Of a DNA stretch of 64,000 nt, positions 32,933 to 62,322 are shown piece after piece (position 1 is the first letter of the stretch; each line of letters begins with the position of its first letter). The stretch is from Psammoneis japonica (lineage: Eukaryota): assembly GCA_008632985.1 (NCBI GenBank), contig QPGO01000008.1:62001-126000 (forward strand), written 5' to 3'. The position numbers were made by a program, and so were the translations under genes. The notes under the pieces were generated by a model. It saw nothing but the letters and a program-made list of their open reading frames with translations. It searched no databases and was not told the DNA's origin.

Positions 32933-34285
32933 TCATGCAATGCATTGTGTGCTTGGAGTGGAGGTGGCTTTGCTGCTGGCGCTGTGAAGGTTTTCTCCCT
33001 GCCCAAAGCTGGACGGCAGGGCCTCCAGTGCCACCCACTGATGTGCAGGCGGTGCAGCAGCTGGCCAAACATGTGTTGGGATTGGGCAGGTGGGCCCATC
33101 TGGAGGGCTGGTGGAGTGTTCTTGCGGGGCAATGGGCACTTCAGCATTGGGGTGGAGCACAAAATTGCCCCCAGCGAGCATGGCTTGTGCAAAACCGCGC
33201 ATGGTGGGTTCGGCTTGGAGGTGCAGGTAGCGCAGCATCTCGTCAGAGCACCACCGGCCTAAGAGACGGATCAGGTCGGTGTCAACATGGGCACACAACA
33301 GTGCCGTTGCGCCTGCTGCATGAAGGCAGCGGGGCGAGACATTGGCCGGTGTAAAACCCAGGTTCTCAGGACCCAGGGCAATGACGGCGGCATGGAGTGC
33401 TGACGTGATGTCGGCAGGGGACACTGCGTGCCACCTGCCATTTTCAAAATGCACCCCCAAAGGGGTGTCGGGGAGCGCTCCACAGGTGCACAGGCAAATG
33501 ACCCGGCGGATGAGGGCCCTGGTCGGGCAAAGGTCTGGATGGCCGGATGGGCCACGCGCGATGACTTCGCCGCGAACGCCACTTTTCTGGGTGGTGAAAG
33601 TGAGGGAGCTGAGTGTGGTGGCGAAGAGGGCAGGGGCCACAGTGGTGAAGGGGTCAAGGTGCACTCCGCCCAAGGCCAAACGCAGATCTGCCAGGCGGAA
33701 CGGAGTGGTGTCGGATGGCGTGGCTGTGCATTCACCCAGGCGAAGCAAAAAGAAAAAAGCCATTGCGATCATGTCCGCGATGGCCTTGGTGCCTGCGCTG
33801 TTGCTGAGGGCGGCGGCATGCAAGATCCAGAGAAGGACGCTGATGGGGACTGGTTTGACACGGTCGGGTGGCGGATCCTGTTTCTTGTAAAAACGGATTT
33901 GGCGGGCAAGACGGAAATCCATGTCGCCCTGGGGTGTGCAACGTGGGTCAGAGGACCCCATTGCAGCAAACATCTGCCCAACCAACCGCAGGGCATCCTC
34001 AGCAGTGTGAGCCCAGATGGGATTGCCTCTTGGGGCGATGACGCCGGTTTGGAGTCGATGGAGGAACACTTGGAGGAAGAGGATGGGATCGTTGGTGTCT
34101 TCGAGAAATGGACTGATGGCCAGTTGGTGGCAGAAATCGATCCAAAGGTTCCAGTGGGCATCGGCGGCAGAGGATCGGGAAGAGGTGACGCCGCATTGCA
34201 CTGCATCCTGCGCAGCACTGAGATCACACAGGAACACAGTGCGGGTGGCGGGGTCCACAGACGCCAAGACTTGCTCTGTGGACAA
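32933..34285 (-). pseudogene. Tyrosine recombinase of the retroelement, mutated
   Basis: AFFFLLRLGECT (expected LRxGEY), FTTQKSG, SPRCLHAAGATAL and LLGRWCSDEMLRYL. Confidence 0.88.
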
Positions 34286-34292
34286 GTGGAGT

Positions 34293-36420
34293 TCAGGTGA
34301 GAAAGGAACACGACGTTAGAGAGGTGTTGCAAGCCGAAGCATTGTCACCAGCACGGTTCCAAATGCCAGGGTGGCAATCATGGAGGCCGATGTGACGGTG
34401 TTGGCGTTGATGGTGCGCTTGAAGCCTGAGGAGTTTTGAAGCTGGTTCAACCATGGTGGCAGATCCCTTGCGTTGCCAGTGCATGGTGCCAAGGTTGTCG
34501 GCACGGTCAAGGTTGGTGCGCTCGCGGATGTCGCAAGTGTCGGAAGCTGCACAGGTGTGGACGACACTGCCGACGAGTTCGAGGTCAGTGTTGGTGATCG
34601 GGCCGTGTGGATTCTCACATGTGGCGAGTGAGTCTGCAACATCCTTGGGGAATTGTGGGCGCCATGCCACAGGGCCTGGGTCACGTTGGATGCGACGTCG
34701 ACCAGAGGAATGGTGCAGCTTGGCGGCTCGTGGGACTGCAGTGGGAGTTGGCACAAGCACCCCGCCGGCTCCGTGGCCGGCAGCGTCGTGACAACCATGA
34801 ACAGTTGGGGGCAGTGGTGCGAGCTCTTGGAAGTGGACGGGGCGTGAATCCAGGGACTGGCAAAGATCACGAAAATCATCCAGTGTGGAATGTACGTTGG
34901 CTGCGAGACGGATGCGTGAGTCCGGTGTGGTGTGGCAGAGTGCCTCCTGCAATTCGGAGAATGGGCCCCGCGAGCCGGGTGTGGCCACCGCGAGTGACCG
35001 CAATTCTCCCAGGAGTTTCTGATGCTCTTGAATGGTGACGCGTTTGCCTGAGCGGGGAAAGTCCTTGTAGAGTGTGTGGTGCAGTCGTGCACGACGGCGT
35101 GGGGTGAGTCGGAGTGTCATCGACAGTGTGTCGATCAACCAACCCAACACCTCTTTCTGTGTCGACCAGGTGGCGTCACCCTTGCAGAGCTTTTTAACTG
35201 ATGCAGGCTCTTTGCGGGCGGCAATGTCGTCCGAATCGGTGGGGTAGAACACGTCGTCGATCGCGTGCAAAAGCACACGATGTGTGTTCCGTCGAGCTGC
35301 GGTGGACCCCTGCACGGCGCCAATGAAGTCATCGATGCATGTGTCGATGCAGGCTAAACGCCGGCGGCGACTCGGATTGAGGTGTGGATCTGGCAACGTT
35401 GGAATCGGCATGGCTGTCGTTGTGGGAGGTGATGTTGGTGGGGGTGCATGGGTGGGTTCGCGACTGGATGCCACTTGCTCCAACGGGTGCGGTGGTGCCG
35501 TCCCGGCGCGTGCCAGCTGCAAGTTGGCTAGATCTGCCACCGTCTCGGTGGCGGCACTGAAGCATGGTGGCAAGTTTGCCCAGCCCATGGGCAACCGCGT
35601 GGGTGTGGCTGCCAGCGGGGGTTCGCCCGGCAAATGTGGGAAAACCACCCCAAGTCGTTGGGCACCATCGGGATTGAGATGCATCCGACAGAAGCCGTCC
35701 GCTAGATCAACCTTCATGAGATGGACGCGACCGTGCGATGGGTTGGCCAGCAAGATGCGGCGCAACAACCGGTCGAGTGTGCGTCCGAACTGCATGGCTT
35801 CCATCAGGGTGTCAGGCTGAGTCACGTCGTTCGTGCCGCAGAATGTGCAGTCGACAATTGGTCGTGGCCGACGTCCACACTGGGGTGCTGCGCCAATGGG
35901 GCTCAGCCGCAATCCGGGCGTTTCCTTCATTTCCTCATGTGGGAGGACCACCCAGAAACCCTTCTCAACGCAATCGGCCATGTCCTCCCGGAGGAATTCG
36001 ATGTGCTCGCAGGCGGACTTGTGTGCCCCCCTGGCCAAACTTGCTTCAAGCTCCTGAGGTGTCCATGGTGCATCTGCAAGGGTGATGGGGACACTGCGGT
36101 GTTTGCAGTTTTGCAGCAGCCTGTGGGCTGGGTGACCACGTGTGCAGTGCAACAGTCCCCAATCCCCTCTGCCACTGCGGCGATGCAACAAGCAACTTGG
36201 TCCTCTAAGGCACAGCAACTTTGTGTCACGCAACATGTGCTCACCTGGTTTGTCAGTCTGCACAGCGTTGGCAATGGCCTGCGCACGTGATGCACTGCGG
36301 TTGTTGCTGTCTGTGAATCTCTCCGCCTGTGGGGGTGGCGGCACTGCCAATGACACCGATGGCAGCTGACATGGCTCTCGGCCCTGAGTCCCCGAACTCG
36401 GGCCATTGCCGATGACCCAT
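34293..36420 (-). pseudogene. Reverse transcriptase / RNase H of the YR element, mutated; 5' boundary approximate
   Basis: RPRPIVDCT, KVDLADGFCR, RLPMGW, CIDDFIG (YxDD changed to CIDD), KEVLGW, HDAAGHGAGG and TNTDLELVG. Confidence 0.88.
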
Positions 36421-38669
36421 TCAGTCTTCCAATGCTCCGTTGCCCATGTGAGGAGGTTCGCTTGGTCGCTCTCCGCGTGGTTGTTGTGATGGTCTGCAAC
36501 ACAACCACAATTGGAATTGCACTGCCCTTTCAAGTGGTGTGGGAGGCACCGTGGGTTTCCTTGCACATCGACCGGCAATGCGACTCCGTTCTGGGTGCAA
36601 CGCCATTTCACCTCACGTGACCCAACATTGGGACAATCGCGGACGGCATTAAAACGTTCGTTGCACTGGGGGTTGCGCACTGGCGTGTTGTCGCCCGGTG
36701 CGCCTGGACGGGGATTTTGTGCAGTGCTGCTCACTGGTTGTGATGCTGAGGGGATCATGGCAGCTGGGGCAGGTGCGTTCCCGGCCACCAATGTGATGGT
36801 CGGGGGCAACGTGCAGCACCAAGAATCGTTCCCCTTCAAGTGTTGCCAACCACCCGGCGTGCATGGAATGGAGCTGCAGCATTGCAGGCCGTCTCCTGCA
36901 GCCGGAACCATGACATGAGCTCCACCTGCACACAGCGCTGGATGTCCACCACTGGCGTTGGGTTCTGCGAGCACTCCACAGCTGAATCCTCGGCGTGGGT
37001 GTCCAGGTCCTCGCGAGAATCTGTGAAGCACCTGACCACAGGGTGACCCATGCCCAGCAGGGTTGCCAGTGCGACGCGTGCACTCTCCATGCAGCATTGG
37101 AGCGATTCGATCGTGGTGGTCACGCGAGCGTCGTCTGGTGTTTCCAGCACCATGGTGTCGGCAAGACTGGGCCGACTGTCACCGCGTGAATTTGGCGGCA
37201 CATGGCAGAACGGTGAGCAATCTGCTGCGCTTGCTCCGGGGTTGTGAGGCTGAATTGATGCGGGTTGACTCCTTGTGCGGGATCATCCCCATTGTCCCCA
37301 GCAAAGTTGAGACTCATCAATTTCGACACCAAACTGACAGTGACTGGGATGCGAAACCGCACTCCCAGGGCGTGGCGTGTCTCGTCCACTGCATTCTGGA
37401 CCTCCGCAATGCACCCCGCCTTGGAAGCCCACACGAGACGTGGCCACACAGGTGGCAGCTGATCCTCAGTGTACACTTGGCAGAGCCGCGTGAGCTTGCA
37501 CACGCCCAGATCGCCGAACGCCTGCACCGGCGTCTTTCCTTGTTCAGCTGCCCACTGGCGAGCCTGCGCGTCAATGCGTGACTGACGTTGCTCGGCAGTG
37601 AGTCCATCGATTGCCCTCACCACTGGTGCAATGTGATGGGGCGGGAGCACCAAATCGTTGCGCCCTGGCAGGTCCAGATTGACCTTCTGGTCGAAGTGCC
37701 GAATGAGCGCCGCATTCGGTGGTTGTGGCAAGACTGGCCACTCCCGTGTCACTGCAGACACGTTGGGGTCCACCGCCGTGGTGGTGCAAGCCACCTTGAG
37801 ACAACCCAACAAAGGGCGCAATGCGCCCACCTTGTTCCCAGCCGTTGCCGCTCCCAGAATTCATGTGAATGCCTGCTTGGGCGGCAACCCCCCGGGAAGA
37901 AGTGTGTCACGCAGGCGAAGGGGACATGCATCACAAATCGCGCGCGCACTTCTGCCGTGTTCACTGCGTTGGGGTCAGCCGGGCCCACCAAACCTTCAGG
38001 GTGTGCCGTGATCTTCGTGGCCATCCCAGCATCGTCCAGGACAAATGCACCAGCGGCGGCGAGGCCCATCTCTTCCGGTGGGTGTGGCACCGCCGTAAAC
38101 TGGTTGGCGACCAGGTCCCCAGCTGGGGCACAGGTGTTTCCATCCCAAGGCTGAGTGGGTCCAATGACGGTGGTCGGGTGGGTGGAGATGCGATGACACA
38201 CTTGAACCGCCCCTGCATCCGGCGCGCCCTGCGTGCGGCAAAGGCGCGCCAACGCCATCGGCACGTTGTGTTCGGACGCCGCAGATGCCCTCTGCTCCAG
38301 GGCTTGTGGGTTGCATCGTGAGGGTCCTTGCACACGGGCAGCAAAATCAATCATGGGCTCAGTGTAGACTCCTTGGTGTGGGTCCTTGTTGTTTGCCGCG
38401 AAGCAATCGTGGCACGTCCTGAGGTTTCCCTGTTGCGGAACCGGGGCTGCGTCGGCTTGCTGCGCTGGTTGGGCAGCTGCCTGTGGCTGTGTGCCCGGCC
38501 CCCCTTGTGGTGCTTGGCACGCGGGTACACCCAGTGGTGGCTGAGCCGGTTGTCCTGCTGGTGGCACAGGGTGCACCGGCGGAGGCGGTACATTCGGCGG
38601 TGGTTGTGGCGGTTGCCCGGGCGGTTGCCCGCCCCCTTGGTTCATGGCGTTTGGTGGCTCGTTGTTCAT
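36421..38669 (-). pseudogene. gag-like ORF of the YR element, frame-broken, with C-terminal Cys/His finger
   Basis: Pro/Gln-rich N-terminus from ATG 38669; segments 37749-38669 and 37120-37830; CLPHHLKGQCNSNCGCVADH near 36500. Confidence 0.65.
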
Positions 38670-38740
38670 GCTACGAACTGCGTCTACTTCTTTCTGCGAT
38701 AGGGCAAAGATGGCGGAGGTATCCTGCGTCGCGGTCTTAT

Positions 38741-38911
38741 AGCGATTAAACTATGCTAACGACAGCGGCTTGTCTTTGTCGATCATGAAAGAATGAGACA
38801 AGCCGGTGATCGAGGAAAACAACAACCAACCTTTACAGCACGTTCAACGTGCGTACGTGGTTCAATAGGTAATGGGTCTTCTCCCCGATTCTGGCACTGG
38901 ATGAGGACAGC
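38741..38911. repeat. 5' terminal direct repeat of the YR element
   Basis: Copy of 32646-32816 that retains three additional TA dinucleotides. Confidence 0.92.
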
Positions 38912-39055
38912 TACTCGAGAGTAGAGCTAGCTTAGAGCAAGACTAGGCCTCTAGATTGCAAGGATTGCTACCTGATAAACAAGCTTCGAACTCACGAATA
39001 CTAGATTTTGGGTTCTGTAGCAGTGGGTGAGTGATGATGCGATGATACTTTTTTC

Positions 39056-41876
39056 TTATTTCTTGGTTAGCGGGAGAACCTTTGCGTCTATTCTCTCTAC
39101 TCTCCGGCCATGTGTATCCAGTGCAAGCTCGATTATTTTTGCTTTTTCGCTTATCGAATTGGTTGTTTCTGTCCCATCACCCCCCAGACCGCCACCTATC
39201 GAAGACGGCACTTCAATGGTCGTATTTTGAGAGAAAAACAACAATTCTGACCAACCCTGATAGTGAACTTCGACTTGGACCAGATACTCCATACCGTTTC
39301 GAAGTGCTTCCACAAGGGCACCGAAATCACCAAGTGCTTTCGTCTTGCGATAGATTCCTGATGGCCCGGGCTCCATGGTATTGAATGTCGCAGAATTTTT
39401 GCCCGTCTGTACAGTATCATTCAATCCAATAGTCACTAACCCAGGGTTAGAAAGAAACACATACTTGGAGTCGTCCCCGGATGGATTAAATGGAAGGCCG
39501 CCACCGCGAACCGGGTCGTAGTTCAGAGTCCCGTACTTTTGATAGTCGTTCGAACGGCAATAGTTCAATAGGTACCCTGGTTCAAAGTCAAAATCGTCAC
39601 AGTACGGTGGCATGGCTTTTGTTAGAGCCTGCCATGTACAACAGGTGAAACGAGTATTGACTGCCCCTGTTGGTCTGCTCAACACATTCATCACGGACGC
39701 GCCCGAAACGTAGTATTCGTTGTTTTTGCAGCCGGCGACACACGTGACATCTTCGTAACCATCTGGTGTATTTCCAATCAGGTCTTCCCACTTTGTGCAA
39801 TTGCTGGTGATGCGCAGTTTGCTCTGGTGGACTTGCCGTTCCCGTAGGAGTATTCATCGGCTAGTTCGAACAACGAGTGTCCTAGTTCATGAACTGCAAC
39901 CAGGGCTCCCTTTGGATGCGTGGTTGTCGTAGCTACGTTCGATGAAGTGTAACCCGCTCCGCCGTACCTTTTTAGTATGGAGAAAATACCGTAGAACGAA
40001 TCATCAGACCGTTGTTTCATTGCACAACAAAACTAACAAAAGTATGAAATCAACCTCAACCTACCTCTGTTCATTGTGAATCACTATAGTCTGCAAAGAA
40101 TTGCTGCCGGGAGGAAAGCACTTTTGCGACAGCTTCCGAACCTCGGGGATGTCACAGCCTGTTATTTGAACGGCTTCAAAGGTTAACATCTTTGCAGCGT
40201 TGCACACAGAAACGTCGCTAGACTATTGTAGATCAACTTACACAGGAGGCGCGCAACATTGCCACAATTGTATTCGCATATCGAGGGGGTAAGATCAACT
40301 GGATCAACAAAGAAAGCGTTGTACTGTCGATTGTCTTCTGCGAACATTGTAAAATCACGGAAGGTCTTGAACGTATCACGGACTTGAGATTGCCACGCTT
40401 CACGACTCGTGGTGTTAAATTTTGACCCGACAAAAACAAGATTGACCTTGTTTTCATCGAAAGCTGTCCCGTATTCATGTTTTAGAGGATAGCAGTCCGG
40501 TGATGCCATACAAGCCCCGTTTCGGCAAGTACCAGAAATGCAATCATCATGGCTCGAACAAATTTTACCGGTGCCATCCGCTTTCTTGGCAGCAGATTTT
40601 GCTTGTATTGTCGGTGATATTGTAGGCAGAGACGTTGGGAGGCTGGTAGGCTCAAACGTTGTGGGAACCATCGTTGGAGACACCGTTGGGAGCTTTGTCG
40701 GTCGTTGCGTTGGAAATGGAGTGGGGACCATTGTTGGAGACATCGTTGGCGGCTTTGTCGGGCGTTTGGTTGGAAATGAAGTGGGCTCAGCAGTGGGGGA
40801 CACAGTAGGCGCTCTGGTCGGTTCATCGGTTGACATTCTCGTTGGTAAAAAGGTAGGAGACAACGTTGGACTAATCCTAGGCGATAACGTTGGAAGTGAA
40901 GTTGGTCCCATCTTAGACGATCGCGTTGGAGTTGAAGTCGGTGCACCGGTCGGGGACACGGTAGACGCGGGTGCTCGTTCCGTTGTTTTCGAGGGAGTTT
41001 CTGGGACTTGGACAGTGGTTCTCATGGTTGGAACTACTGTTGGCGCCAAAGTCGGCTTCTTTTTCTTAGGAGATGCATTTCCTTCAATGTCCTTTACACA
41101 ATTCTCGATGTTATGACAGTCCCAGAATGCACACTTCTGTTCCTTTCCCGGCAGTGGGGTATGAAAGCAATTGTTCCGATTACACCGACGACATATGACC
41201 GACGGAGAAGGCGTGGGAGCGGGAGTTTTAAGAGACGGAGTTGGAAATGGCGTGTTATGACTTGTGGGTAACAACGTCGGCGCAGCTGTCAAAGCGATGC
41301 CATCTTCTGAACTGCTGGCACCGGGTGTCAAATTCACGTATCCTTCACAATAACTCCGAGAAGCACAATCCCATTTTGCACATTTTCTCTCCTCTCTTTC
41401 CTCAATTGGACCTTTAAAACAATTGTTCCGAGAGCACCTCATACAAAAGTCAGGTGCTGGTGCTGGTGTCGCCTGCGTCCGTTGGGGGGCCGGAGTCGGC
41501 ACGTCGTTGATACTGAAATGATTCTTTTTGCAAATGCTTTCCAGAGCATAGCAACTTAGTTCCACACAGGATTGTTTTTCTGTAGATGTACTAGTCTCAA
41601 AACATTTTCGTTTTTCACATTTAGCGCACAGATGGCACTGTCGTCGTTTCTGCTTTGTAAATGAGGCGCATGGACCTTCTTCTGTTTGCAAAGTTCGCAG
41701 CGAGGTTTGATGTGTCTCCAACGGCGCTGTCAGAATAGACGAAGCAATAACCAAGTAAGCAATCAAGTCTACTAATGAAAAAACAATAGCAAAGAAGACT
41801 ACTGACCTTGTTCTAGAGAAGCAGTTGCCAGAACGATCCCCGCTAGAACAAAAAAACAGAGCGATGTAGTTCCCAT
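39056..41876 (-). CDS. Secreted peptidase-M64-like metalloprotease, paralog 5; spliced
   Basis: Signal exon MGTTSLCFFVLAGIVLATASLEQ spliced in phase 1 to APLETHQ; KVNLVFVGSKF; HELGHSLFELADEY. Confidence 0.85.
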
Positions 41877-42361
41877 TCTCAAAGTCTCCTGTTCTTGTGG
41901 CGGTTGTCGTCTTCTGGATTTCAATCAAATAGAACGGCTCTCCCAGCTGCCTATTCAATAACTCGGTCAGAATGACATTCAGTTTGCCGACAAGGTATCG
42001 GATCGGCACCCCCAGCCGGGGAAAAAATGGGAAGAGCGAAGAGAACTTGGTTTTGATGACCGATTGATATTTTTCACTTACGCCAGTCCCGTTAGCCACC
42101 ATTGAGACGTTTCTTTTATTTAAGATATGGTCATCTATGACAAGTTTGATTGATAATTTCTTTCGCTTCAAGTCATGCGCGGAGCCAGCACACGATGATG
42201 TTTTTGACCCAATTCCCTTTGCAGGGAACGACTGCTGTTCCTCCAGTGCCTTAGTATTTCTTGGCGGCACAACATAATACTGTAAGTTTAGCTACTAGAT
42301 TCCTACACATTCAGATGACGTGACTCACAAAAGAAAAGGAAGGCCTTGAAATAGGAGGAAT

Positions 42362-42616
42362 GAACCATCCAAAGTCATGAGGTAGCATTGACCAAGAAGG
42401 CTCCACCTTCGGTACAGCGAAAGGTCCAAAGATACTTCCGCAAACTCCCTCTCTAGTAGTTACTCTTGTATTCTAGATAGCCAGATCCGAACCATCCAAA
42501 GTCATGAGGTAGCATTGACCAATGAGGCTCCGCCTTCGGTACAGCGAAAGGTCCAAAGATACTTCCGAAGCTCGCATCCCTCTCTAGAGTAGTTACTCTT
42601 GTATTCTATACAGCCA
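42362..42616. repeat. Two-copy tandem duplication, period 127 bp
   Basis: GAACCATCCAAAGTCATGAGGTAGCATTGACCAA...AGCCA starts at 42362 and at 42489. Confidence 0.9.
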
Positions 42617-42704
42617 TGAAACTCAGAATTTAAAAAGCAGATCGGTCTTCTGCGACAATAGAAACCCCACGTCTCAAAGCAATGAATAAGAGAATGCCCG
42701 ATCT

Positions 42705-44977: not shown

Positions 44978-45455
44978 GTTGCAATCGAGCGGCCGTAAAT
45001 TTCAAGACGGGGAGGAAGTACTGGAAGGTGTGAACGCTTTGCCACTCGTGTTGATAATGAAGAATGAAGTGGTTCACAAACTGTGCTTCCCTCCCAAAAC
45101 AGATGAGAGATCAGCAACCGCGCAAACTCAAGTCGTGCCTGGCTCGTACCGTACATTTTCGTAGGAAGTCAGTACATTACGTCATCAGTCATACAATTGT
45201 GGTCAAATTTGTCATCTCTGTTGCCTATAAATGTTACTTAACAGGAAAATACTTTTCAAATTCGAAAATCATAGACATGGACATATTGATATTTAACACC
45301 TTACATGACTTATACGACGGAATGAAATGATTATCATTGACAATGTTAAGAACGGTTATATTTGAATGATCAATAAGTGTTGAGCTCACATTGTCGAATG
45401 ATGATGGATCCGAAGAATGATCGAGGGTCCGGCAAAGTGTAATCTTGTCCATAGT

Positions 45456-50152: not shown

Positions 50153-50349
50153 TACCGTATTGGCAATCCAAAAGCAAGTATTCATACACCAGTTCAAGTC
50201 ATCTGCGATGCGGGCCCTCTCTACTCTCTAGCTCTAGAGTAAAGAGAATCATATGGCAAAGACACCCTCCCAAGACGCCGTTCTGTTCTGCATTTTGAAT
50301 TGACTCAAGCGATGCTTCAAATTAGCGGATTTCAGTACGGATTTAGAAA

Positions 50350-51458: not shown

Positions 51459-51673
51459 AGCTACGGTAGTACAACACAAGACTTGGTAGCACTACCGAAT
51501 CTATTTTCTAAGAGATAAATGTAAATACGAATGCAGAGACAACAGAAGGCAAAAAAGAAACTCTAGGAAGTAAACTACAAACTACATTCATCTTAACCAC
51601 GTACAAAAGAGCATCTGCCGGTACGTGAATGTAACACTTGACTCTGATTCATGCTATTGACGACGCGTCTCCG

Positions 51674-52113
51674 TTAATGAGGGGGGCTCATCCAGAATAC
51701 AAAGCAGGCCCTGGGGTCATTCACTGTGTTGCACTGACCACATGTTTTGTGATTATTGGCAAGCTCCTCGTGGAAGAAGCAACCCGCGGCTGCGCAACGG
51801 ACGCAAGTGTGGCACACCTGCCAAGTAGACATGGAGTCTCTACTGCATATGGTCCCATCCAAATCAGGAGGCACAAGATTTTGATAGGCCTCTCCAAGCA
51901 CCTCCCAGCGTCTTGTGGGGAGATCTGTTTGACGAATACCACATCATAGGAACAGCGTCAGAAAGGCGAAATGAGAGAATATATTCAATTCACGCATTTC
52001 GCACATAACATCGTTCGAATACAAGACGTACCGGTACCTCCAACCTCGTAAGCACAAGCAAACCGAAGAAAGGCTCCGAGAAGGACGATGACAACTGGTA
52101 GGTGACGGGACAT
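51674..52113 (-). CDS. Small secreted protein with one Cys module
   Basis: Signal exon MSRHLPVVIVLLGAFLRFACA, phase-1 intron, then CHTCVRCAAAGCF...CGQC. Confidence 0.65.
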
Positions 52114-52472
52114 GGTCGATACAAGATCTAAGAAGCTGCGACTGACTCTGCAATTGTGATTGTGTTGATTAGGTCTTCGTTCGCCTGGCAAAATGTGAGG
52201 GGGTCACAGTGTCTTTTCGGTAAATAAGCCCTTCTTGTAATGACCAGTGTCCAATCAAAGGACATAGACTTTACAAAAGTGAAGACTTCTACGGTACAAT
52301 TTAAAAAATTATAATATGACTATCGTTTCTCCAAACTCTTGAACATTATATTATTGCCCATTTAGGAAGGGTCATTCTCGGAGTCATCATTATAATATTT
52401 GCGTGCTTTTAGCCACACAAAGATACCTCTGCCAAATTTGTGAAGTGCCACGAAGACAGTACGGTATCAGAG

Positions 52473-53014
52473 ATGGCGGCTTCAAAGGGACGACTTCTTC
52501 TCGTCCTTTTAGCTTTCCTGACCCTGTCAAGTTCACATGAGAAAGGTGAGGATTTGTAAAATCGTGTTTTGCCTTTGCGGCTACAGTTAGTACCGTGGCG
52601 CCTGCTCTATTTTATCGACAGACGTCAATGATCCGTTTCTGCTCATAATCGTATTCTCTGCCAGTACTTGTGAAAGCCGGCAGCAGAAAACGCATGCTAC
52701 AAAACGGGCCAAGGCACAATAAGATTCCAGTAATTCCGGTTGGCGCAACGAATTGGAACGATCCTGATAACTGGCAAGCGCGCGCGTCAGAAATCGTCCG
52801 CGTTCGTGACACTCTAGTGAAGCGCCTCCATCTTGATATGTGTGGAGAGCGGATCCCAGGACAAGCTAGACGATGGCGACTCTGCCGCAGAACGATCAAG
52901 TGCCTCCGCGCAAAGTGCATGACGGACCAGCCTTCTTTTCTAGGAAAGGGAAAGTGTAATAAGTGTTGGCGTATTTCAGTCGAAAACGTGATTGAATTTA
53001 TCCCGGCAGCTTGA
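52473..53014 (+). CDS. Small secreted protein with a divergent Cys module
   Basis: Signal exon MAASKGRLLLVLLAFLTLSSS, phase-1 GTGAG intron, then CRRTIKCLRAKCM...CNKC. Confidence 0.6.
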
Positions 53015-53089
53015 CGTACCGGTACAAGATTGATACCAGGAATAGGTAAATTAAGAAGATCTAGGAGAGTTCAAGCGCGAAAGCCCACA

Positions 53090-53982
53090 CTACTCTGGCG
53101 CTTTTTTCAAACTAGCTCTTGCTTGTCTTGAGAAGACAAACACTCCTTCCGATCCACTCGGTTCTTTCCATTCAAGTCCATGCCGCTGTGCGCATTCCAG
53201 TACCAGGTCGATATTGACGTTTCGTCTGACAAATGAAAGCCAAAACTCCCCTCTCACTCCATCCGGAACCATGAGCAGCATAACCGTGTCAAACAATGGC
53301 TCGATCACGGCTTCCACGTAGATGACGTCACTCGCAAGAATAACATCGAACCCCCGCGGGTAATCGGAAAGAAAAGATTCAACGTTATGCCCCCATAGAA
53401 GTTGTCGGCAAGAAATAGTCGCATTGTCGTTTCTTCTTTTAACGTTGGATGCGACATTAGCTCGCATAGCGGCCAGCGCGTCTGTATCACCATCTGTGAG
53501 AACTACATTCTTGGCATTCAGAAAGTGAGCAAGTAACCCACACAATCCCAAGCCTGCCCCAAGCTGAAAGCCATTGTGATTTAGCGATGATTATCGCAGT
53601 ACGACAGAGAAATCAGAATAGAAGTATTGTTTCTTACCTCCAGGACAATTTTACCCTGAATTGATTTTTGAGTAGCAATCATGAAGTTGCAAAGCAGAGG
53701 AGAGGCTCTCCAGAGTGTCAGTCCAGTGCTGCTAAGGATTTGTCCGTTCTCTGCCTTGACACCAATTATGACAATACGTATATCGTTTGGAAACTCAAAC
53801 TCGAATTCCTCATACCGATCGGGTTCGTTGAAAAGGTCGCCTGTGTCAGGTAATTCGCATTCGCCGTTTTCTACGTTGATCGCCTGACTTCTGTCACCGC
53901 TGTCGATCAGTCCCTCCGCCTCAATCCAGGGCTGCTCTTGTTCGCTAGGACATGTTTCGTTTTTTGTGCCAAACGTAGACAT
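53090..53982 (-). CDS. Protein lysine methyltransferase, Methyltransf_16 / METTL21-like; one intron
   Basis: TGLTLWRASPLL, IVLE/LGAGLGLCGL, VVLTDGD, LLWG and FDVILASDVIY. Confidence 0.88.
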
Positions 53983-54299
53983 GTCTATTTCGAGAATCAA
54001 TCTAAATACCTTGAGAAAACTCTTTGAAGACTTTTATGGCTACTAATGTGCCCGTTTTCTCACCAAGGATGACTGCAACAACTTAACATGAAAACGGTCA
54101 ATCAACACAACTAAATTACCGCAGCAGCAAAGATGAACGTATTTCTAGCAGTTTTGCGTTTGTGAATGGAAGATCACTCATCACTCATTGCACACTTTCC
54201 ATTCTACCTGAACGCGTCAACACATTCAACATCGCATCGCATAGCGTCGCTGTTCGCATTCTGAATTTTGATGCATTGCAATTGCCCTGTCGCGGTGCT

Positions 54300-56424
54300 G
54301 CATTTACGCGCGCGCGTGAACGTCACCTCAGCAGTGGCGCGGTGTGAATTACAGATGCTGGAACTTGCTGGGTCATGCATGTCAATCACATCAATCACAT
54401 GCATCATCGTCACATCATGTGCAGGAAAGCAAGGGTTCAGGTTTTGGGATGGGTTCGCGAGATGGGACTGCAGCTTGGTGGAATGGCAGGTGAGCTGGAC
54501 AGTCAGGGGTTTGGTGACCATGAGACTGAGGGCAGTGTGGCGGCGCAGCAGTGCGGCGCGAGGTGAGTGTGAGGCCAAGCCGGGTGTTGATGGGTTCTTC
54601 TGGGCAGCTGCAGCAGCGGGTGAGAGAGAGAGCTCCCCTGAGCACAACAATGACTGGGTTCAGGTGTGTGCAGCATGGCCAGGTGCGTGTTAAAAAGAGG
54701 ACTCGGGTGCTGCCCAGCAGGCTGGGGGGCTGCGCATGTGGGGTGGAGATGGGGGGTCATCTTGGTGTTGTTGGCTGGTTTGCTCTAAAGAGAAGGCCAT
54801 GGGGGGCAAAGCACCCTTCCTGGCACTGCCAAGTGGTCAAGGCAGAGATGCTTGCTTGCCTCACAGAACTTTGTGATTTGCGCGCAAAATTTTTGCTTTG
54901 GGCACTTGCACGTGGTGTGTGGCCTCAGCAAAAGGGCTGAGATTGGGGGCAGGCAAGCAAGGAGCTGGAAGGGGGAGAGGAGATTTGGTGACAGCTGCGC
55001 TGATGGCTGGGCAGTGGTGACCTGGGAGCAAAGCAGTGGAAGAAGAAGCAGGGGTGAGTTCTTCTTGGACACACACCAACATCAGCAGCTTGTTTCATGG
55101 GTGAGTGTGGGTGAGGTTTGCAGGCTCTTGGTGAGTGGCAGAATCTCACATGTGTCAGACAGCAGGCCAATTGTTTGAAGCATGCCAAAGAGAGCATCTC
55201 AGACAGCATTGGAGAGGTCAGTTTTGTGCCCAAGAGAGCAGCGACAGAGGGCACATGGTCATGACCATGTGGAGTGTGGACATCAGATGCACCATTGCAT
55301 GAGGTGCAGAAGATGTTGGGTGGCAGCCTGTGACCATTTCTGTTGTTTCACAAAAAACACCACAGCACATGCCAACCCCACTTCCCCATCTTGCTCTTGT
55401 GCTTGTGCAGTTGGGTCAATGTTCCTGCCTCTTGTTGCTTGTCTCTGCTCCATCTTGTGCCTCCACATGTGCTGAGAGGTTGTGCAGTGGCATCAGCGTT
55501 GCTGGCACAGACACATCAGAGTCCAAGTCATTTGAGCATTTCATGCAATGCTCTAGAGAAGCATCCTTCTTGCACTTGGCAACCTCATCTTTGTCCTCCT
55601 CCTGTGTCCTGTGAGCCCCCTCATCCAAGAATTCTGCAAGCGCATCTTCAAGCTGTGCATCAACATTGTCCTCTGTTGTTTTCTCACTTCTGTTGCTTGC
55701 TTTTCCTTGAGCTCTCTTCCTTTTCTTTCCCAACTTGCTGTGCTTTGCCTTTTTGACAATGTCGTCTTTTGTCTTTGTCTTCTTCCTCACCACAAGAACC
55801 CAAGTGACTTGTGTGCAGCAGTGCTTGTGATCCAGGGCAACACATCATTGGGACAAGGCATTGACCATGTCATGAATGGACTCCATTGCACCCTTCGTGA
55901 AGAAGCCAGTTGTTCTGCACTTTTGCAACATTTTCAAGGTGCGCACTGTCAGTTGGCAAATCTTGATGGCAGCAGAGCCAACGCAAAGCTCCCAGAACTT
56001 CTTGACATCTTCCTTGAACTTGTCAATGTCAGCATTCTCTGACATGTTGATGGATCTTAACCAAGGTGGGAGCTCTGCAAATGTGCCAAAAATCCCCTTG
56101 ATGCTTTTTCTTCTAACTCTGTTTTCACCTCATCTGACTCATCTTTGGATGCTTCCCACAAGGCACTGAACAACAAGCTGGAATTCTGCATCATTCTGAA
56201 ACAATCATTGCCATCAAATGATCCACCATGGAATGGGTTGTGCTGGGCACTGACAGGTGATTTGCTGATGATGGATTCCAGCATGCTTTCAAACTTCCCT
56301 TGGCCATGTTTCAGGTGTGCACCAATGTTGGAAAGCAGACCCTTGAGTGTGCAGGGTGCACTGTCTTGTTGCGATTGCTCTTGAGTTGAGCATGAAGTCA
56401 TCCAGCAGACTCACGCGCATCTCT
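54300..56424 (-). mobile_element. Degenerate RAG1/Transib/Chapaev-like DNA transposon, 3' part; left boundary approximate
   Basis: FHGGSFDGNDCFRMM (56057-56401) and GFFTKGAMESIHDMVN (55845-56045) resemble the GN and GxxSExxxES motifs of this transposase group. TA and CG are depleted. Confidence 0.6.
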
Positions 56425-56429
56425 GTGTG

Positions 56430-56705
56430 TGACAGAAAATGAAGGCAAATGGCAAGAATTCAAACAATGACTCCTCACTGCTGTCTAAACAGCAGATGAG
56501 TCTCCGCTCAGAGACCGTCACAGGAGCCGAAAGACGTGCAAGTCGGTGCAATCGGGCTACTGTTGTCATTCTTGTGAGCCTTGTGGCTCGAAAGCAAACT
56601 ACATCGCGCGTGAACGCGCGGAACTGAAGCACACAAAACTGTGCACGGTAAACTAAACAGCGCGCGACACTTCGTGCGCACCTGAATCCTGTTCAAATCC
56701 TGTCA
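56430..56705 (-). repeat. 3' LTR
   Basis: TGACAG...CTGTCA; 14 transitions versus the 5' LTR and no indels. Confidence 0.95.
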
Positions 56706-59700
56706 CTCCCCAGTTTGCTTGAGGAGCCACAGAAACAGATTCGACTTCGGATGGAATGAAGTTCCAGAACATGAGGGGGCGGAGAAGGTCCCAGATTTGG
56801 GAGCAACCCCAATGCTTGCTGAGAATGTCAGCAGGGTTGCGGGAGCCTTCGATGAAGTGGAACTCAAGGCAACCAGAGGCAATTGCCTCACGCACACGGT
56901 GGAACGACAGTGCGGTGTGTCGCTTGTGTAACTTGGAGTGCGGGATGGTGGCACTGTCTACAACCGACTTGTTGTCACCGAACATGTAACTAACGTTACG
57001 GATCGGGACGCCAAGGCAGCGCAGGGTGATGCGCAGGTCGACAATCTGCTCAACACAAGTCCTTGCGGCAACAAATTCAGACCCGTAGGTCGCAGTCTCC
57101 ACGGTGGCTTGTTTCTTAGAGAACCAATCAGCCGGGAATTTGTTGAGGAAGTGGAGCATTCCCATGACAGAGCGTCCGGTGAGCATGCAATGGCACAAGT
57201 TTGCATCGACGTAGTGGGTGGCAGTGACGAACTTGCCAAGGGGCGGTGGAGCGTCCTTCGGGATCATCTCTTCTGCTTCACCATACACGGAATGCATCCA
57301 TTCACAGGCCGGAGCAGGGAGATCCGAACAGTCGGGCTCTTCCGTACGAACGCGGAGAGCACCGTGTCGCATCTTGGAGAGGCACCCACAGACGCATTTG
57401 GCACGATCCAAGTGGCCTTGACGGGGCGCAGCTCGGAAGCTAGAGAGTGACATGACAGCCGTGGCAATGTCAATTCGACCAAGGGACACTGCCCATTGGA
57501 GTGAACCAACAAGAGACTGGAACTTGTGAATGCCATCGGGTCCCAGCAGTTCGGAAGTGTCCAGTTCGGGGAGGTCACCCTTCTCTAGAGGTGACAGGGC
57601 GTTGGTGGCAGGTTTCTCCCCAAACAGTCAGGCACAGCTGTCGACCATGCGCTCGATGTACTTGCACGGAGACAGGCACAAGGTTCCGTCGGGTTCCCGG
57701 GAAAAGTCGCAACCCAGATGGAACTCAATGGGTCCCGTGCCCTTGAGCTTGAACTTGTGCTTTTCCGTGAGAGTGTCGACGAAAGATTGAGGGTCCTTCA
57801 TGGCAATGGCGAGGTCATCCACATAAACGGCAATGCACTCACAGTGGTCGCCGTTCCTGCGCATCCAAATGTCGGGTTCGGCGCGGCAGGGGAAGAAGCC
57901 TTCAGCTCGCAGGCAGTCGGCGAAGCGCTCGTGCCAGCGGAGACCGGAGCTGCGCAGTCCATGCAGTGCCTTGTGGATGACAAGGATGTGTCCTTCGAGT
58001 TTGCCGAACTCGGGTCCAGCTGCAATGTAAAGCTTCTCCTTGGTGGTGGCTTCAAGGCAGGCATTGCCAATGTCGGTGGCCCATGTCTCCAACTCGTTGA
58101 GTTCGGCCAGGAAAATCATCAGCCGAAGGCCACGGAGGGAGACCACTCCGGAGTGGACACTGTCGACAGGTACGTCCATGAGGTGCCCGTCGGCTACGAG
58201 TCATGCCTTGTGGCGACCGTCGTGTTTCACATCGCACACCAGGTGCACTCGGATCTTCTTGTGTCCCGCAGGAGGAGTGGAAGACTTGAAGGGCCCGCAG
58301 TCATGGAAGACTTCGTATTCGTCGAGTTGGTCCATCTCGAGATTGGTTGCGTCTCCCCACTTGCGGTTGCCGTTGCGTTCGTCCAGTGACATGGCGTGTT
58401 TGTAGTTCCGGGGAACTTCGCATCCATGCTTGTAGCGGGGTGCAGTGCGGAAGGAGCGAAGCTTGGCTTGGTTGGCCATGCGAAATAGCTTCTTTTGGCG
58501 CCTCGCGATGGTGCGGAACCGCTTCCAGCCATCCGTGTCGAGGAGTCCGTTCTCTCGTGCATAGATGGCACAGGTGACGGGGTTGTCCTTGGCGATGATG
58601 GCAAGAGGCTCGGACGTGATCTCCCCACTTTCCCATTCAAGCATGATGTTGTAGCTGGAGCCTTTCCAGGTTGGGTCGTGAGGCTTCAGAGGTCCTTCGT
58701 GTGACACGATGCGTCGAAATTTCCAAACAGTGGTGTCTTCGTCTTCTTGCTCAATGTGATTCATGATGTCATTGCAGGCAAGGACTTCCTCGTATTCGTC
58801 ATTGTTGACAGAGCAGACGAACTTGGTGAGCTCGGGATTGCCGTTCACTTTCCATTCGTGGTCTTCGACGGCCTTGACGATGCGAGCTCTGTGGCGTTGT
58901 CCGTCCTCTTGTGGCTGCATGAGGAAGGTGCGTCCAATGATGTCTTGCGGATCGAAAACTGGCATCTTGGGTGTCCTGATCTCCCCATCAGGAGAGTCGA
59001 CGGGGTTGTCGTCATGGCGAGATTTGATGATGGGTTCAGGTGGCTCCCCATCAGGAGGATCAAGACGCAGGTTTCGAACGGCAGGATCGGGGGCAGCGGA
59101 GCGGACGTTGGACCGGTGGAGGATCTTCTGAGTCTCGTCAGATAGAATCTTGAAGGTCATCTGGTGGCCGACGTGCTCAGCAATGCCAACGAAGCGTCCA
59201 CGCAACTCACGGGATTCAGACGGCCAATCGGAGTCATCGAGGTGGAAGCACACGGGTTCCCACCAGTGAAAGCGAAGCAATGGGCTGATGTCCGGGGTGG
59301 AGCCAGTGAGAGTCTCGAGGGGCGTGCGCCAGTGGAGACGTGGGGACACTGTGTGGTTGAGGATGAAGCACACGCACATGAGCGCCAGCAGCCATGTGTG
59401 GGCAGGCGAACCAAAACGATCCATGACAGTGTTCGCCATGCGCTTCACGGTCTGGCATCGACGCTCGGCAAAGTTTTGGTGTTGCTGGTGAGGCTCACTT
59501 TGCCAGCTAGAGATGAAGAGGGCGCGCAGGATCCCGAGCACTTTGTTGCTGATCTCAACTTGAGCACGGTCGCCAATGAGTTTGGATGGGGCACCACGTG
59601 CACGGATCTGATCCTCGAGTGTGTTGACAAACTCTTTGTCCGTCTTAGCACCGCAGACGTCAGTGACGGTGGACTCGGTGCCAACAAACAGTTGGGCGCT

Positions 59701-62322
59701 GGTGCAACCAGAGTCGACGGCCGGGGTGTCGGCACAAACGGTGTCAGTGGCGATGGGCTCGTTGCGGCGGTGCACATTAAGGGCGGGGTTGGGTGATTTG
59801 CAGGCCTTGCGAAGGTGTGTGCCGGCGGGCATGCGGGCGCACTGCGTGGTGCAGTCAAAAGTGCGACGGACTGTGTCGGCAGGCAGGAAGCCAAAGTGAG
59901 GCCGAAGAGACTCGAAGGGGGGGTCCTTGGGCTGCACAGTGCACTCCGGAGGTGGAACGTCATCGCCCTGGGGGCCAATCGCATGCAGATGACACTCGTA
60001 GAACACGTCGTCGTTCGGAATGAGGTGATCATCGAGGGCGGACGCGTGATCGGCAGACAAGGAAGCGGACAAGATGGTCTCGTTGACAACGACACGATGA
60101 CGGCAGTTGCCGCACTCGTCAAACAGGTTGGCAGTGGGATCGTCCTGCAGGTCAGAGATCGCGTCGCACCACTGGTCGTCGTCAGTGACAGAGTGATCGA
60201 GGACGGAAGGGTCCCATGTGTCATCACCGGTGAGGATGACATGGGGCAGGGTGTCCCATTCGGCGTCAGTGCAAGGTCGCATGGCAACACAAGGCAGGCC
60301 AGCCTTGATGTCAATGGGGATGACACAGCCATCAGGAGTGGCAATGCGTTGCAAGCCGTTGGGCACCTTGACAGAGCGATCGTTGACATCCTGTTTGCAC
60401 CATTCGAGCTGGCCGCAGGAGTGGATGGTCTTGCCCTTTCCCGTGCATGCGCACTGATGGAGGATGGCGATGACGGGACCACGCTGGGTCTCAACAATGG
60501 CGCCAGCGGTGACAATGGGGATGTCCACCAATTGATGATCGTCAATGCCCTGAACGTCGACTTGGTGAGAGGTGCGTGCAATGACGCGAACGTCGTTGCC
60601 AGCAATGCCGCCGTTGGCCCCACGATTGACTAGAGCGCCAGTGCGTGTGGATCGATGAGCAGAGGCAGAGCAAATGACATTGTGGTTGTCAACGCGGCGG
60701 CAAGTGCGGCCGTTAAGTTCCACGTTATCTGCAGAAGCTGGCGGGGTAGAGGAAGCGGCGGATGGCCCCGGTCGACTGGCATTGGGGGCTTGGTTAGGAG
60801 ACAACAGACGTTGCAGATCACCGGGTGGCAGTGGCTTGCGCTTGGTGAGGTGCGCCAGGATGGGATTGTCCGAAGTGGCGTCCACATGTGGGGCGGAGTC
60901 ACCAGAGTCAGCAGGAGTCGTGTTGGACAAGTTGACATCACCGTCACTCCCAAGGCGTTGGTCGTGAAGGTTGGCCGCAACAGACTCATGGCAGTTGCTG
61001 GCTCGCGGGTTGCGGGGAGGTGGACGAGAATGCTCAAGGATGATCGCCTTGGAGGAATCGGGCAACGAATCCCAGAGCCGTTGGTGGTCGGGAGGGAGAC
61101 GTCTCCATTGGACACCGGTGAGGCTGGGACCGCGGGTGTGGGCAGCATTGGCTTGAAGGACGTCAACGTCACTGTCAATGTCGTAGAACACATCGTCGGA
61201 CGGTTCCTCGGAGTAGACGTCGTGTGCGCACATGGCGCGTCGGGGAGCTCGAGGTGTCGTCTTGGGTTGAAACGTGCTGTCGCACTGAGCTGCTGCGGAG
61301 AGGAGCAAGCCACAGTGTTGATCGCATGTGAGGCTCTTGCCACTCTGCGTGCGATGCTGATCAGCTTGGTTCTTGACAGCACGGAGTTCCTCGACAGGGT
61401 GCACGGCATTCTCGAGCATGACGCGCTTCTGTCCTTCAGAGAAGTGGTCACTGGCCGGGATGAGTGCCTCGTACTTGCGCAACTGATCTTGCCAATGAAG
61501 GATGAACCCGTGGGTCGGACCTTTCCAAGTGCCATCACCAAGACGCGCGGTGGTGAGGTGCGTGAGCAGGGTGGAGGACTCGACAGATGCGCGGGTGGAG
61601 GCAAGCGCGCACTCAGACAAGGAGCGGCAGACGGTCTGTGCGTCAGAAGACTCCACATTTTCGCGAATGAGAGCCTTGCCCTTGTCGGTGAGAAGGATGC
61701 GTTCGAAGACGGCGAACATGCACTTTTGCTGTTCAGCAAAGAGCAGTTTGTCTTCGGGGCTGGTTGGTTTGTACGACGAGTCTAGAATGCACTCGACGTC
61801 TTGGGCACGGGCTTGTGCCACAAGTGAGGTGTGCCAAGTGTGCCACTGCTTGTCGGATTTGAGAGCCGTGAAAGCGGTGGGATCACGCTTGATGCCTCGC
61901 TTGAAGTCCCGCACCGGGTCGCGTGCCTTGGTCGGGTTGGTGACATGTGGAGGTGCAAGGGGTGAGCTGCCGATGGACACAGAAGACATGCAGTCGGGGC
62001 TGAGGCGGCAGGCAAGGAGCTCGTCATGTGTGAACAAAGAGGAGTCGTTGGCAACGTCAAGACCTTTGTGTGCTTTGACAATGCACAGACTGACTGGTGC
62101 TGCTAACATGTTCTCACAACCACGGGGCAAAGGGATTGCATCAGTGCCGTTGTCGCACTCAAGCGAGTCGATTTGGGACGGCATGAACGTGAACAGTTCC
62201 TGACATGAGTCCGTGCCGTCTTGGGCCAAAGCCAAACGAAGAGGACTCCCAGCACCTTGGGCAAGCACGGTTCCAACCACGTGCTTGAAACCATCGGTTT
62301 GTTGCTGACGAGTGAGAACCAT
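56706..62322 (-). pseudogene. gag-pol polyprotein in a single frame with two TGA stops (58201, 57628)
   Basis: LVNRGANGG, IATDT..GDRAQ..NFAERR (integrase), DVKHDGRHKA, DIGNACLEA, AVYVDDL, ETATYGSEF, FGDNKS and NPADILSK. Confidence 0.92.

Follow-up and report, generated by a model that had tools for sequence, protein, structure and literature searches.

Near-saturating loss of TpA dinucleotides and tyrosine codons in retroelements of the diatom Psammoneis japonica

Results

We analysed a 64,000-nucleotide stretch of the genome assembly of the diatom Psammoneis japonica (GCA_008632985.1, contig QPGO01000008.1, positions 62,001 to 126,000), hereafter the window, along which all coordinates below are counted. 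Two retroelements lie on its minus strand: a tyrosine-recombinase retroelement of the DIRS order (32643-38911, with 174-bp direct repeats at 32643-32816 and 38738-38911) and a complete Ty1/Copia-type long terminal repeat (LTR) retrotransposon (56430-63539). Both have lost nearly all of their TpA dinucleotides over most of their length. An earlier note on this sequence had drawn attention to the protein-level trace of that loss, namely cysteine and histidine in motifs that normally carry tyrosine.

Measured in 1-kb steps, the observed/expected (o/e) ratio of TpA falls from 0.3-0.96 in host stretches to 0.00-0.21 in discrete blocks, in which CpA+TpG reaches 1.3-1.9 while ApT, ApA/TpT and GpC are normal. 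Six tracts have a TpA o/e of 0.00-0.25, and the depletion is restricted to these mobile-element tracts. The first five along the window hold 83 TA in 21.3 kb, compared with 1850 in the 42.7 kb that form the rest of the window, and the longest run without a single TA extends over 2405 nt against a background of about 43 TA per kb; the depletion is therefore not due to chance. One tract (32739-38526; 19 TA in 5788 nt) covers the recombinase element. Another (54350-62436) consists of an older relic at 54350-56429, which is also poor in CpG, together with the 3′ LTR and the coding part of the Copia element, and the relic resumes beyond the Copia insertion at 63542-64000 (0 TA, CpG o/e 0.17). The other three, at 8721-11790 (8 TA and 50 CG in 3070 nt), 12898-16000 (4 TA in 3103 nt, including the 2405-nt run) and 47999-49239 (1 TA in 1241 nt; moderately repeated in X1, a public sequencing run of the same sample), are older tracts in which TpA and CpG are both depleted.

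The Copia element is flanked by a 5-bp target duplication, GTGTG (56425-56429 and 63540-63544), and its two LTRs, each 276 bp long, have TG..CA ends. As the element and its target duplication sit inside a depleted tract, the relic had been depleted before Copia arrived. The 5′ LTR (63264-63539) is nearly unmutated, with 16 TA and a TpA o/e of 0.84, and the 941-nt leader (62323-63263; 44 TA, o/e 0.77) is spared as well. In the polyprotein frame (56656-62322) the ratio is 0.11 at 58701-62322 and 0.25 at 56708-58700, and the mutated 3′ LTR (56430-56705) has 5 TA remaining (o/e 0.31). The frame comprises 1928 codons, contains no frameshift and is collinear, in one frame, with an intact homologue of 1845 residues (P0004) over residues 1-1834 (62322-56761). 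The element matches Pfam RVT_2 at E=1.3e-21; a Pfam integrase (rve) match is absent from both the Copia ORF and intact P0004, and the presumed domain order, integrase upstream of RT in one polyprotein, was taken from collinearity and from reading of the sequence. Only two premature stops interrupt the frame, both TGA at positions where homologues have arginine: one at 58201-58203 (HKAR/LVADGH), which fits CGA>TGA at a CpG, and one at 57628-57630 (..YER/FFG), which also fits CGA>TGA. The frame is closed by a retained TAG at 56653-56655, 50-52 nt inside the 3′ LTR (inner edge 56705). The earlier note had taken the frame to run into the LTR through a probable lost stop; it does end inside the 3′ LTR, but the lost stop is unproven because the C-termini of homologues scatter too widely, over Copia residues 1899-1928. 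X1 shows the Copia family to be highly repeated, with a summed contig depth over 56217-63500 of 41,000-133,000, which is not a copy number, against about 57-73 in single-copy flanks (13,158 contigs over 46000-64000).

The recombinase element encodes gag, reverse transcriptase (RT)/RNase H and a recombinase, the RT and recombinase ORFs being adjacent and overlapping. The tail of gag is fused to RT/RNase H in an ORF of 961 codons (34293-37178), and the recombinase ORF lies at 32933-34315, its C-terminus extending about 60 residues past those of homologues. Some RT homologues carry a precomputed PF00078. The predicted model of a recombinase homologue, P0244 (pLDDT, the predicted local distance difference test, 81.8), resembles Cre recombinase (best E=5.7e-6; template-modelling score, TM, 0.56-0.70), and the top 30 PDB chains for this model are all Cre or Cre variants. 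The Pfam Phage_integrase match is weak, being found in 4 of 21 members (best E=0.0057), and a PDB sequence profile search with the recombinase returned nothing relevant. A Pfam search with six large element ORFs gave no matches; intact P0124 and P0244 likewise gave none, and P0004 gave only RVT_2. As intact relatives are equally poor in Pfam matches, the missing matches are a trait of the family and not a sign of damage. Damage is nevertheless evident in the reading frames: gag homology is split over three frames, the RT frame shifts near 34300-34332, and there are at least 4 frame changes in total.

LTRs of one element are copied from a single template and are identical on insertion. The two Copia LTRs now differ at 14 of 276 positions, 13 of them at TpA and one a CpG against a TpG, with no mismatch of any other kind. 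At 11 of the mismatches the 5′ LTR has TA where the 3′ LTR has TG or CA; two further mismatch positions form one dinucleotide, CA against TG, at which both LTRs are mutated. In all, 12 of 17 TA sites are mutated in the 3′ LTR and 1 of 17 in the 5′ LTR. Since every difference between the LTRs falls at TpA or CpG, integrated DNA is what the process acts on, and since no other kind of mismatch has accumulated between them, it appears to outpace background mutation by far. In the 3′ LTR, 5 sites have become TG and 6 CA, and TA>TG to TA>CA stands at 26:7 in Copia and 4:9 in the RT ORF; with both outcomes present, both strands are mutated.

The LTR mismatches at TpA also exclude, as the main source, A-to-I editing of the transcript by an ADAR- or ADAT-like enzyme before reverse transcription. 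Retroelements do have an RNA stage, known adenosine deaminases favour a 5′ U (Mettrop et al. 2026, 10.64898/2026.01.13.699255, Discussion), and Tyr>Cys outnumbers Tyr>His by 20:2 in the 5′ two-thirds of Copia (residues 95-1222), all of which would suit editing at the RNA level. However, LTRs made from one template should then match, and they carry 13 TpA differences. Sense-strand T>C changes are frequent (Tyr>His seven times in Copia; 9 TA>CA versus 4 TA>TG in the RT ORF; 6 CA versus 5 TG in the LTR), the transcribed leader is spared, and non-coding relics are equally depleted, one of them at single-copy depth in X1. The Cys:His skew itself tracks local context, a purine preceding the codon in 6 of the 7 Copia His outcomes, which means T-A-pyrimidine on the opposite strand. 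We therefore consider RNA editing very improbable. A transcription-linked strand bias was also tried for the Cys:His skew and rejected in favour of local context, because the skew is opposite in the RT ORF and absent from the LTR. In our judgement it is highly probable that a fast, dinucleotide-specific TpA>TpG/CpA transition acts on integrated retroelement copies and that a slower CpG>TpG/CpA decay is laid on top of it.

Homologue alignments bear out all of the motifs in which the earlier note had seen tyrosine replaced by cysteine or histidine. In the recombinase element, DGFYR has become DGFCR, YVDD has become CIDD and LRPGEY has become LRLGEC (Y196C), and a further change turns IVDYTFYG into IVDCTFCG. 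In Copia, GNAYLEA reads GNACLEA, KALYGL reads KALHGL, D(I)YEYIAVYVDD reads DHCECIAVYVDD and KR(I)YGYL reads KCVCGCL, with the tyrosine of the YVDD box retained. The tyrosine counts that had been made by eye were also right (2 and 2 in the recombinase element and 11 in Copia), but the ORF lengths were so only in part, as the ATG-started ORFs measure 934, 346 (from the first ATG; not 450) and 1373 (not 1383) residues. In the corresponding stop-to-stop ORFs of 961, 460 and 1412 residues, tyrosine makes up 0.2, 0.4 and 0.8%, cysteine 4.3, 3.0 and 3.2%, and histidine 5.7, 4.1 and 4.4%. By comparison, the 120 listed Copia homologues have a median of 3.8% tyrosine (2.9-4.6) and 0.9% cysteine (0.5-1.4), the 120 listed RT homologues have medians of 1.96% and 0.74%, and 55 recombinase homologues, those of 340-440 residues among 150 listed, have a median of 2.4% tyrosine.

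For column-wise analysis we aligned the full Copia frame, with X at the two stops, to the first 60 of the 120 listed homologues, taking a column as conserved at a frequency of at least 70%, and the RT ORF to the first 50 of 120. The 49 conserved tyrosine columns of Copia hold 22 Cys, 7 His, 14 Tyr, 5 Phe and 1 Trp, whereas in a leave-one-out control with the 60 homologues 2794 tyrosine cells gave 2499 Tyr, 22 Cys, 51 His and 174 Phe; the excess of Cys and His is highly significant (Fisher P=2.9e-31). All five conserved tyrosines of the RT ORF are changed, three to Cys and two to His, against 1 Cys and 8 His in 343 control cells (P=4.8e-8), and in the recombinase one of two conserved tyrosines is Cys, the catalytic Arg-Tyr pair being intact. 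The direction of change is from tyrosine to cysteine or histidine: it is fixed by the 60, 50 and 55 intact homologues, which were checked for Cys or His at the same columns and keep Tyr. The earlier note further held that the elements were inactivated by missense. The tyrosine replacements agree with this, but missense did not act alone, as the recombinase element also carries its frame changes.

Beyond tyrosine, 114 of 858 conserved Copia columns are changed: 26 by TA>TG, 7 by TA>CA, 13 by CpG-type changes and 5 by other transitions, with 36 transversions and 27 changes that need more than one step. Once the TpA and CpG classes are removed, 68 of 858 columns (7.9%) are off consensus compared with 9.1% in intact homologues (4483 of 49301 cells). 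Because this residual divergence does not exceed that of intact homologues, the Copia copy is young and has been damaged almost only by the TpA and CpG processes. The 48 changes in the RT ORF include 9 TA>CA (Val>Ala five times, Leu>Pro twice and Tyr>His twice), 4 TA>TG and 10 CpG-type changes.

Environmental relatives of the recombinase element (n=67) have a median TpA o/e of 0.65 (range 0.27-0.85) against 0.10 in the element here, and none of the 67 is as depleted. Their GC content is 0.52-0.63, and as they are equally GC-rich with normal TpA, the high GC belongs to the family and was not produced by the process. The elements do have a GC content of 0.57-0.61, compared with about 0.47 in the host (the non-repeat part of the window), as a non-specific GC-biased process would have it, be it biased gene conversion or a general AT>GC bias in heterochromatin. 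We give such a process next to no weight: the relatives reach the same GC without losing TpA, ApT and ApA/TpT are not depleted, the LTR mismatches are only of TpA or CpG type, and conserved Ile (26/30), Lys (29/35), Asn (16/19) and Phe columns of Copia are kept. Three of the environmental relatives, L002 (over its whole 3927 nt), L028 and L065, show partial TpA depletion (o/e 0.27-0.37); their CpA/TpG is 1.44-1.62 and their CpG is low, and they may be milder cases of both processes in other organisms.

The process has a preference for context. Among the 83 surviving TA, T-A-T on either strand is rarest (9, against 829 in the rest of the window), T-A-C is intermediate (35 against 686), and T-A-purine on both strands (TTAA, CTAG, CTAA/TTAG) survives best (39 against 335), a significant effect (chi-square P=7e-13). 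The trend is also found in the recombinase tract relative to the TA contexts of the 67 relatives (P=3e-4) and in the Copia tract relative to the unmutated 5′ LTR and leader (P=1e-3). It follows that tyrosine codons (TAY) are the preferred target on the sense strand. There is, in addition, a polarity along both elements. Of the columns holding Tyr, Cys or His, 22 of 25 (88%) have lost tyrosine in Copia residues 95-1222 compared with 14 of 26 (54%) in residues 1258-1879, while in the recombinase element the 5′ repeat has a TpA o/e of 0.75 and the 3′ repeat 0.45, and some 210 nt separate the end of the depleted tract from the 5′ repeat. Hypermutation has passed over the 5′ LTR and leader of Copia (62323-63539) and the 5′ end of the recombinase element (38527-38911), though they are as repeated as the rest.

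The removal of TAA and TAG, and with it the persistence of long ORFs in dead elements, had also been proposed before, and the counts agree. Of all stops in six frames, TAA and TAG account for 107 of 939 within the tracts and for 1635 of 3229 outside them, and ORFs of at least 100 residues number 97 in 21.7 kb of tracts (4.46 per kb) against 83 in 42.3 kb (1.96 per kb). Five ATG-started tract ORFs had no exact match in the protein collection. The clearest lost stop lies between gag and RT. A stop closes the RT frame of 49 of the 54 relatives somewhere from 96 codons upstream to 35 codons downstream of the site that matches P0124 residue 1, and in the other five the frame runs off the contig; here it is open for 275 codons. 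In 16 relatives examined for the end of gag the stop lies 7-30 codons upstream, and in 14 of these (L003, L006, L008, L010, L012, L015, L016, L020, L021, L023, L025, L035, L040 and L050) it follows a gag end motif, ..W-x-x-x-H/N-W/Y/H-x-x-x-stop, whose stop aligns with TGG (Trp) at 36417-36419. The gag homology of our element stops at 36420. The alignment of the relatives' gag stops with TGG confirms the loss of the gag stop, which joins gag to pol. The earlier note had placed a TAG>TGG change at about 36418; TGG does replace a stop there, but an ancestral TAG is uncertain, since the 14 motif-aligned relatives have 10 TGA and 4 TAG, and the ancestral stop may have been TGA. In the relatives gag (about 690-760 residues) and pol lie in one frame, with a single stop between them after the conserved motif. 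This arrangement suggests that pol is expressed by stop-codon read-through in this family.

A second layer of change affects CpG, and it probably stems from deamination of methylated cytosine in silenced elements. In the tracts at 8.7-16, 48-49, 54.35-56.43 and 63.54-64 kb, CpG o/e is 0.08-0.3 and GC is host-like, while in the young elements CpG o/e is still 0.65-0.98. CpG-type changes are nonetheless already present in the latter, as in the two Arg>TGA changes of Copia and in SLRAGG>CLHAAG of the recombinase (Arg>His at a CpG), so that part of the Cys and His excess is of arginine origin via CpG>TpG/CpA (R>C, R>H). The older depleted tracts have no similarity to one another or to either element, and 56 ORFs of at least 90 residues in them gave no credible Pfam match, the lone AP3D1 match being below the cut-off. 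These five tracts, which retain 0-8 TA each, are probably old, unrecognisable relics of mobile elements. The window thus offers a series from young tracts, in which TpA is gone and CpG kept, to old tracts from which both are gone.

Run X1 contains other copies of these sequences; the sample behind runs X1-X3 is the only one in which the sequence was found, and no RNA data set was listed for the stretch, which has no bearing on expression. One X1 contig (6365 nt, 3 differences, single-copy depth) reproduces the relic at 54350-56429 and its junction with the LTR; an X1 joint that skips 56152-63630, one side of which is just 27 letters long, was not used. Transitions account for 178 of the 196 X1 variant places over 46000-64000 (A>G 59, T>C 46, C>T 42, G>A 31). 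Sixteen Copia sites are found among the 40 of 201 entries listed, of which 6 are TA<>TG/CA, 4 are CG<>TG/CA and 6 are other, and the TA and CG differences run in both directions relative to the Copia copy in the window. At three listed Copia sites that are mutated in the window copy, 14-91% of the X1 family depth retains TA.

These data also bear on whether the depletion could be an artefact of sequencing or assembly, with modified bases at TpA in silent chromatin miscalled in a genome that truly reads TA. Modified-base motifs produce systematic consensus errors on some long-read platforms, the tracts look like silent repeats, and the library type of X1-X3 is unrecorded. Even so, the single-copy-depth contig reproduces the depleted relic and LTR junction, and the states are graded rather than uniform: TA sites are mutated at 12/17 in the 3′ LTR and 1/17 in the 5′ LTR, tyrosine loss is 88% versus 54%, and copies differ by site. 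The same changes have, moreover, been called de novo from Illumina data in the chlorarachniophyte Bigelowiella natans (10.64898/2026.01.13.699255). An artefact is, in our view, scarcely credible.

Outside the depleted tracts, the window carries genes for a DEAD-box helicase, an alpha/beta hydrolase and a plastid-type ribosomal protein L9, as well as a minus-strand array of genes with Peptidase_M64 domains. Among the matches of the L9 protein, all those whose source name states an organism are from diatoms (Asterionellopsis glacialis, Cylindrotheca closterium, C. fusiformis, Chaetoceros and 'Amphip...'), with a best identity of 56-59%, so that the host has no close named relative in the collection and is not Bigelowiella; a protein-atlas search with a host hydrolase yielded no usable taxon. 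In the Peptidase_M64 array, at least six paralogues, largely without introns, are arranged in tandem at 19982-30696 and 39056-47266. Its genes combine Cys-rich repeats and long Thr/Pro/Ser-rich linkers with a Peptidase_M64 (IgA-peptidase-like, HELGH) domain. Both retroelement insertions sit within or next to this array. A minus-strand ORF of 639 codons at 17180-19099, for which Pfam gave no match, consists mainly of Gly/Ser-rich repeats (GSGSSSGGGTKDK units), after which comes a C-terminal part that is Cys-rich and resembles that of the neighbouring array genes.

Discussion

On the reading that we prefer, TpA in chromosomal retroelements would be converted after integration, almost to saturation, either to TpG by A>G or to CpA by T>C, the latter being the same event on the opposite strand. 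TAY codons necessarily contain TpA and are uniquely those of tyrosine, and other TA-containing codons were rare in these elements, which are rich in GC at third codon positions (GC3), so the visible footprint consists of Tyr>Cys and Tyr>His, accompanied by a few changes of the kinds Val>Ala, Leu>Pro and Ile>Met/Val. As TAA and TAG are erased, long ORFs persist or fuse. CpG>TpG/CpA decay would supply Arg>Cys/His and TGA stops, and over time the two processes together would turn all pyrimidine-purine steps into CA or TG, as in the older tracts. As to the chemistry, deamination of adenine to hypoxanthine at 5′-TA may well be the underlying reaction, though we stop short of calling it probable; that a modified T or A mispairs at TpA appears less likely. 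Stramenopile-specific deaminase-SAM-Tudor proteins and LmjF36.5940-like deaminases have been described (Iyer et al. 2011, PMC3239186) and provide leads to an enzyme, no more than that.

Several observations weigh against this reading or limit it. The sites 57086, 57346 and 61472 keep TA in the window copy, and at each of them 96-100% of the X1 depth shares one derived state. Such shared derived states mean that some changes may have been inherited, or that the outcome was set by a wider context. In the first case, some changes may have been spread by transposition of partly mutated, still mobile master copies. In the second, T-A-C-G, which all three sites read on the mutated strand, may fix the outcome; two of the three are palindromic GTAC. 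T-A-C-G is also the anticodon-loop context of the bacterial TadA substrate, although with three sites chance is possible. X1 may be the same data as the assembly and its library type is unrecorded, and base calls are therefore not independently checked by it. The context preference was derived from the 83 surviving sites and from assumed ancestral frequencies, and T-A-A sites in the 3′ LTR are mutated as often as T-A-Y, so that context can be a rate preference only. Finally, because the spared 5′ LTR and leader of Copia are equally repeated in X1, no simple repeat-triggered model fits.

The shared derived states at the three sites would also be expected if living, TA-free lineages had been selected to evade a TA-reading defence or nuclease, the low-TpA states then being inherited and not damage. 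Such an adaptive purge would accord with a highly repeated Copia family whose frame has no frameshift, whose YVDD tyrosine is kept and in which 14 of 49 conserved tyrosines survive. Yet the non-coding 3′ LTR is mutated and its twin is not, the Copia frame is broken by two Arg>stop changes, and the recombinase element has CIDD, DGFCR, the loss of an arginine in its catalytic box and at least 4 frame changes. The TA kept in 14-91% of the family depth at three listed sites mutated here, and the fact that none of the 120 listed Copia homologues falls below 2.9% tyrosine, point the same way, and we regard an adaptive purge as improbable.

Comparison with known systems helps to place the process. 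The repeat-induced point mutation (RIP) known from ascomycete fungi likewise disables mobile elements in the chromosome through dinucleotide-specific, near-saturating transitions. RIP changes C to T and turns CpA/TpG into TpA, which lowers GC and creates stop codons. The process here is opposite in direction: TpA is lost and CpA/TpG gained, GC rises, and TAA and TAG vanish. In RIP, furthermore, the mutated segment coincides with the duplicated one; here the 5′ LTR and leader escape although their repetition is no lower, and one depleted relic is at single-copy depth. Hypermutation of retroelements with a nearest-neighbour preference, of the deaminase type, is also known from APOBEC3 and ADAR. 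APOBEC3 acts by C>U on minus-strand cDNA, read as G>A, and ADAR by A>G, solely on RNA; from neither would one expect integrated DNA to be changed on both strands or an LTR pair to diverge. Methylated transposons also decay at CpG, and such decay forms the slower second layer here, but it cannot remove TpA or tyrosine codons, and its effect is to lower GC, the opposite of what the TpA process does.

The kind of process that we describe is not new, having been reported once, in 2026, in B. natans. In mutation-accumulation lines of that species, 231 of 302 nuclear mutations fell in integrated giant-virus and virophage regions, 230 of these 231 were A>G or T>C, all at TpA, and coding sequences low in TpA were enriched in reverse-transcriptase and DDE domains (10.64898/2026.01.13.699255). 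The authors propose an adenosine deaminase (Mettrop et al. 2026, bioRxiv 10.64898/2026.01.13.699255). The two systems agree in TpA>TpG/CpA changes on both strands, clustered in foreign or mobile DNA of an otherwise normal nuclear genome, and in long-term low TpA with high CpA+TpG beside normal flanks. They differ in host and target, B. natans being a member of the Rhizaria with integrated viruses, and the host here being a diatom (Stramenopiles) with LTR and recombinase retrotransposons. They differ also in degree, as depletion is near saturation here (o/e 0.0-0.25) against 0.45 in the region of nucleocytoplasmic large DNA virus (NCLDV) origin in B. natans, and in the kind of evidence, as mutation there was seen de novo, about 1000-fold above background in culture, and here the process is read from the sequence. 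By analogy, the process in P. japonica may be the same as the de novo TpA hypermutation of B. natans and may represent a directed silencing or defence activity. The text of Mettrop et al., as far as it was available, has no mention of tyrosine, cysteine, stop codon, retrotransposon, diatom, context or trinucleotide (10.64898/2026.01.13.699255), and we found no report of TpA hypermutation in diatoms in the literature searched, from whose coverage most subscription journals are absent. What is new here is the diatom host, the near-saturated retrotransposon targets, the proof from an LTR pair that the substrate is integrated, the footprint on proteins and ORFs, the preference for the 3′ neighbour (T>C>purine) and the sparing of 5′ ends.

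Tentatively, one can go further and imagine a guided defence, common to diatoms and chlorarachniophytes, that edits DNA by rewriting TpA wherever mobile elements are silenced, spares the promoter-proximal end and may prefer A before T or C, and that large retrotransposon families may evolve under it. In such a defence, the sparing of the promoter-proximal end would point to guidance by chromatin or small RNA and not by repeat pairing. If true, this would be a counterpart of RIP outside fungi that works in the opposite direction, Tyr-poor and Cys-rich pseudo-proteins would be present in many protist annotations, and some families would perhaps still be moving while partly purged of TA.

To conclude, our analysis extends a process known from integrated viruses to retrotransposons, which dominate diatom genomes, and suggests that it is widespread in the lineages of Stramenopiles, Alveolata and Rhizaria (SAR). 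LTR pairs provide a built-in clock for changes on integrated DNA, and a screen of proteomes for low tyrosine and high cysteine, together with a scan for TpA and CpA+TpG, could map the range of the process. Relics with long or fused ORFs in several frames would meanwhile inflate the gene counts of such genomes with Tyr-poor, Cys/His-rich "proteins".

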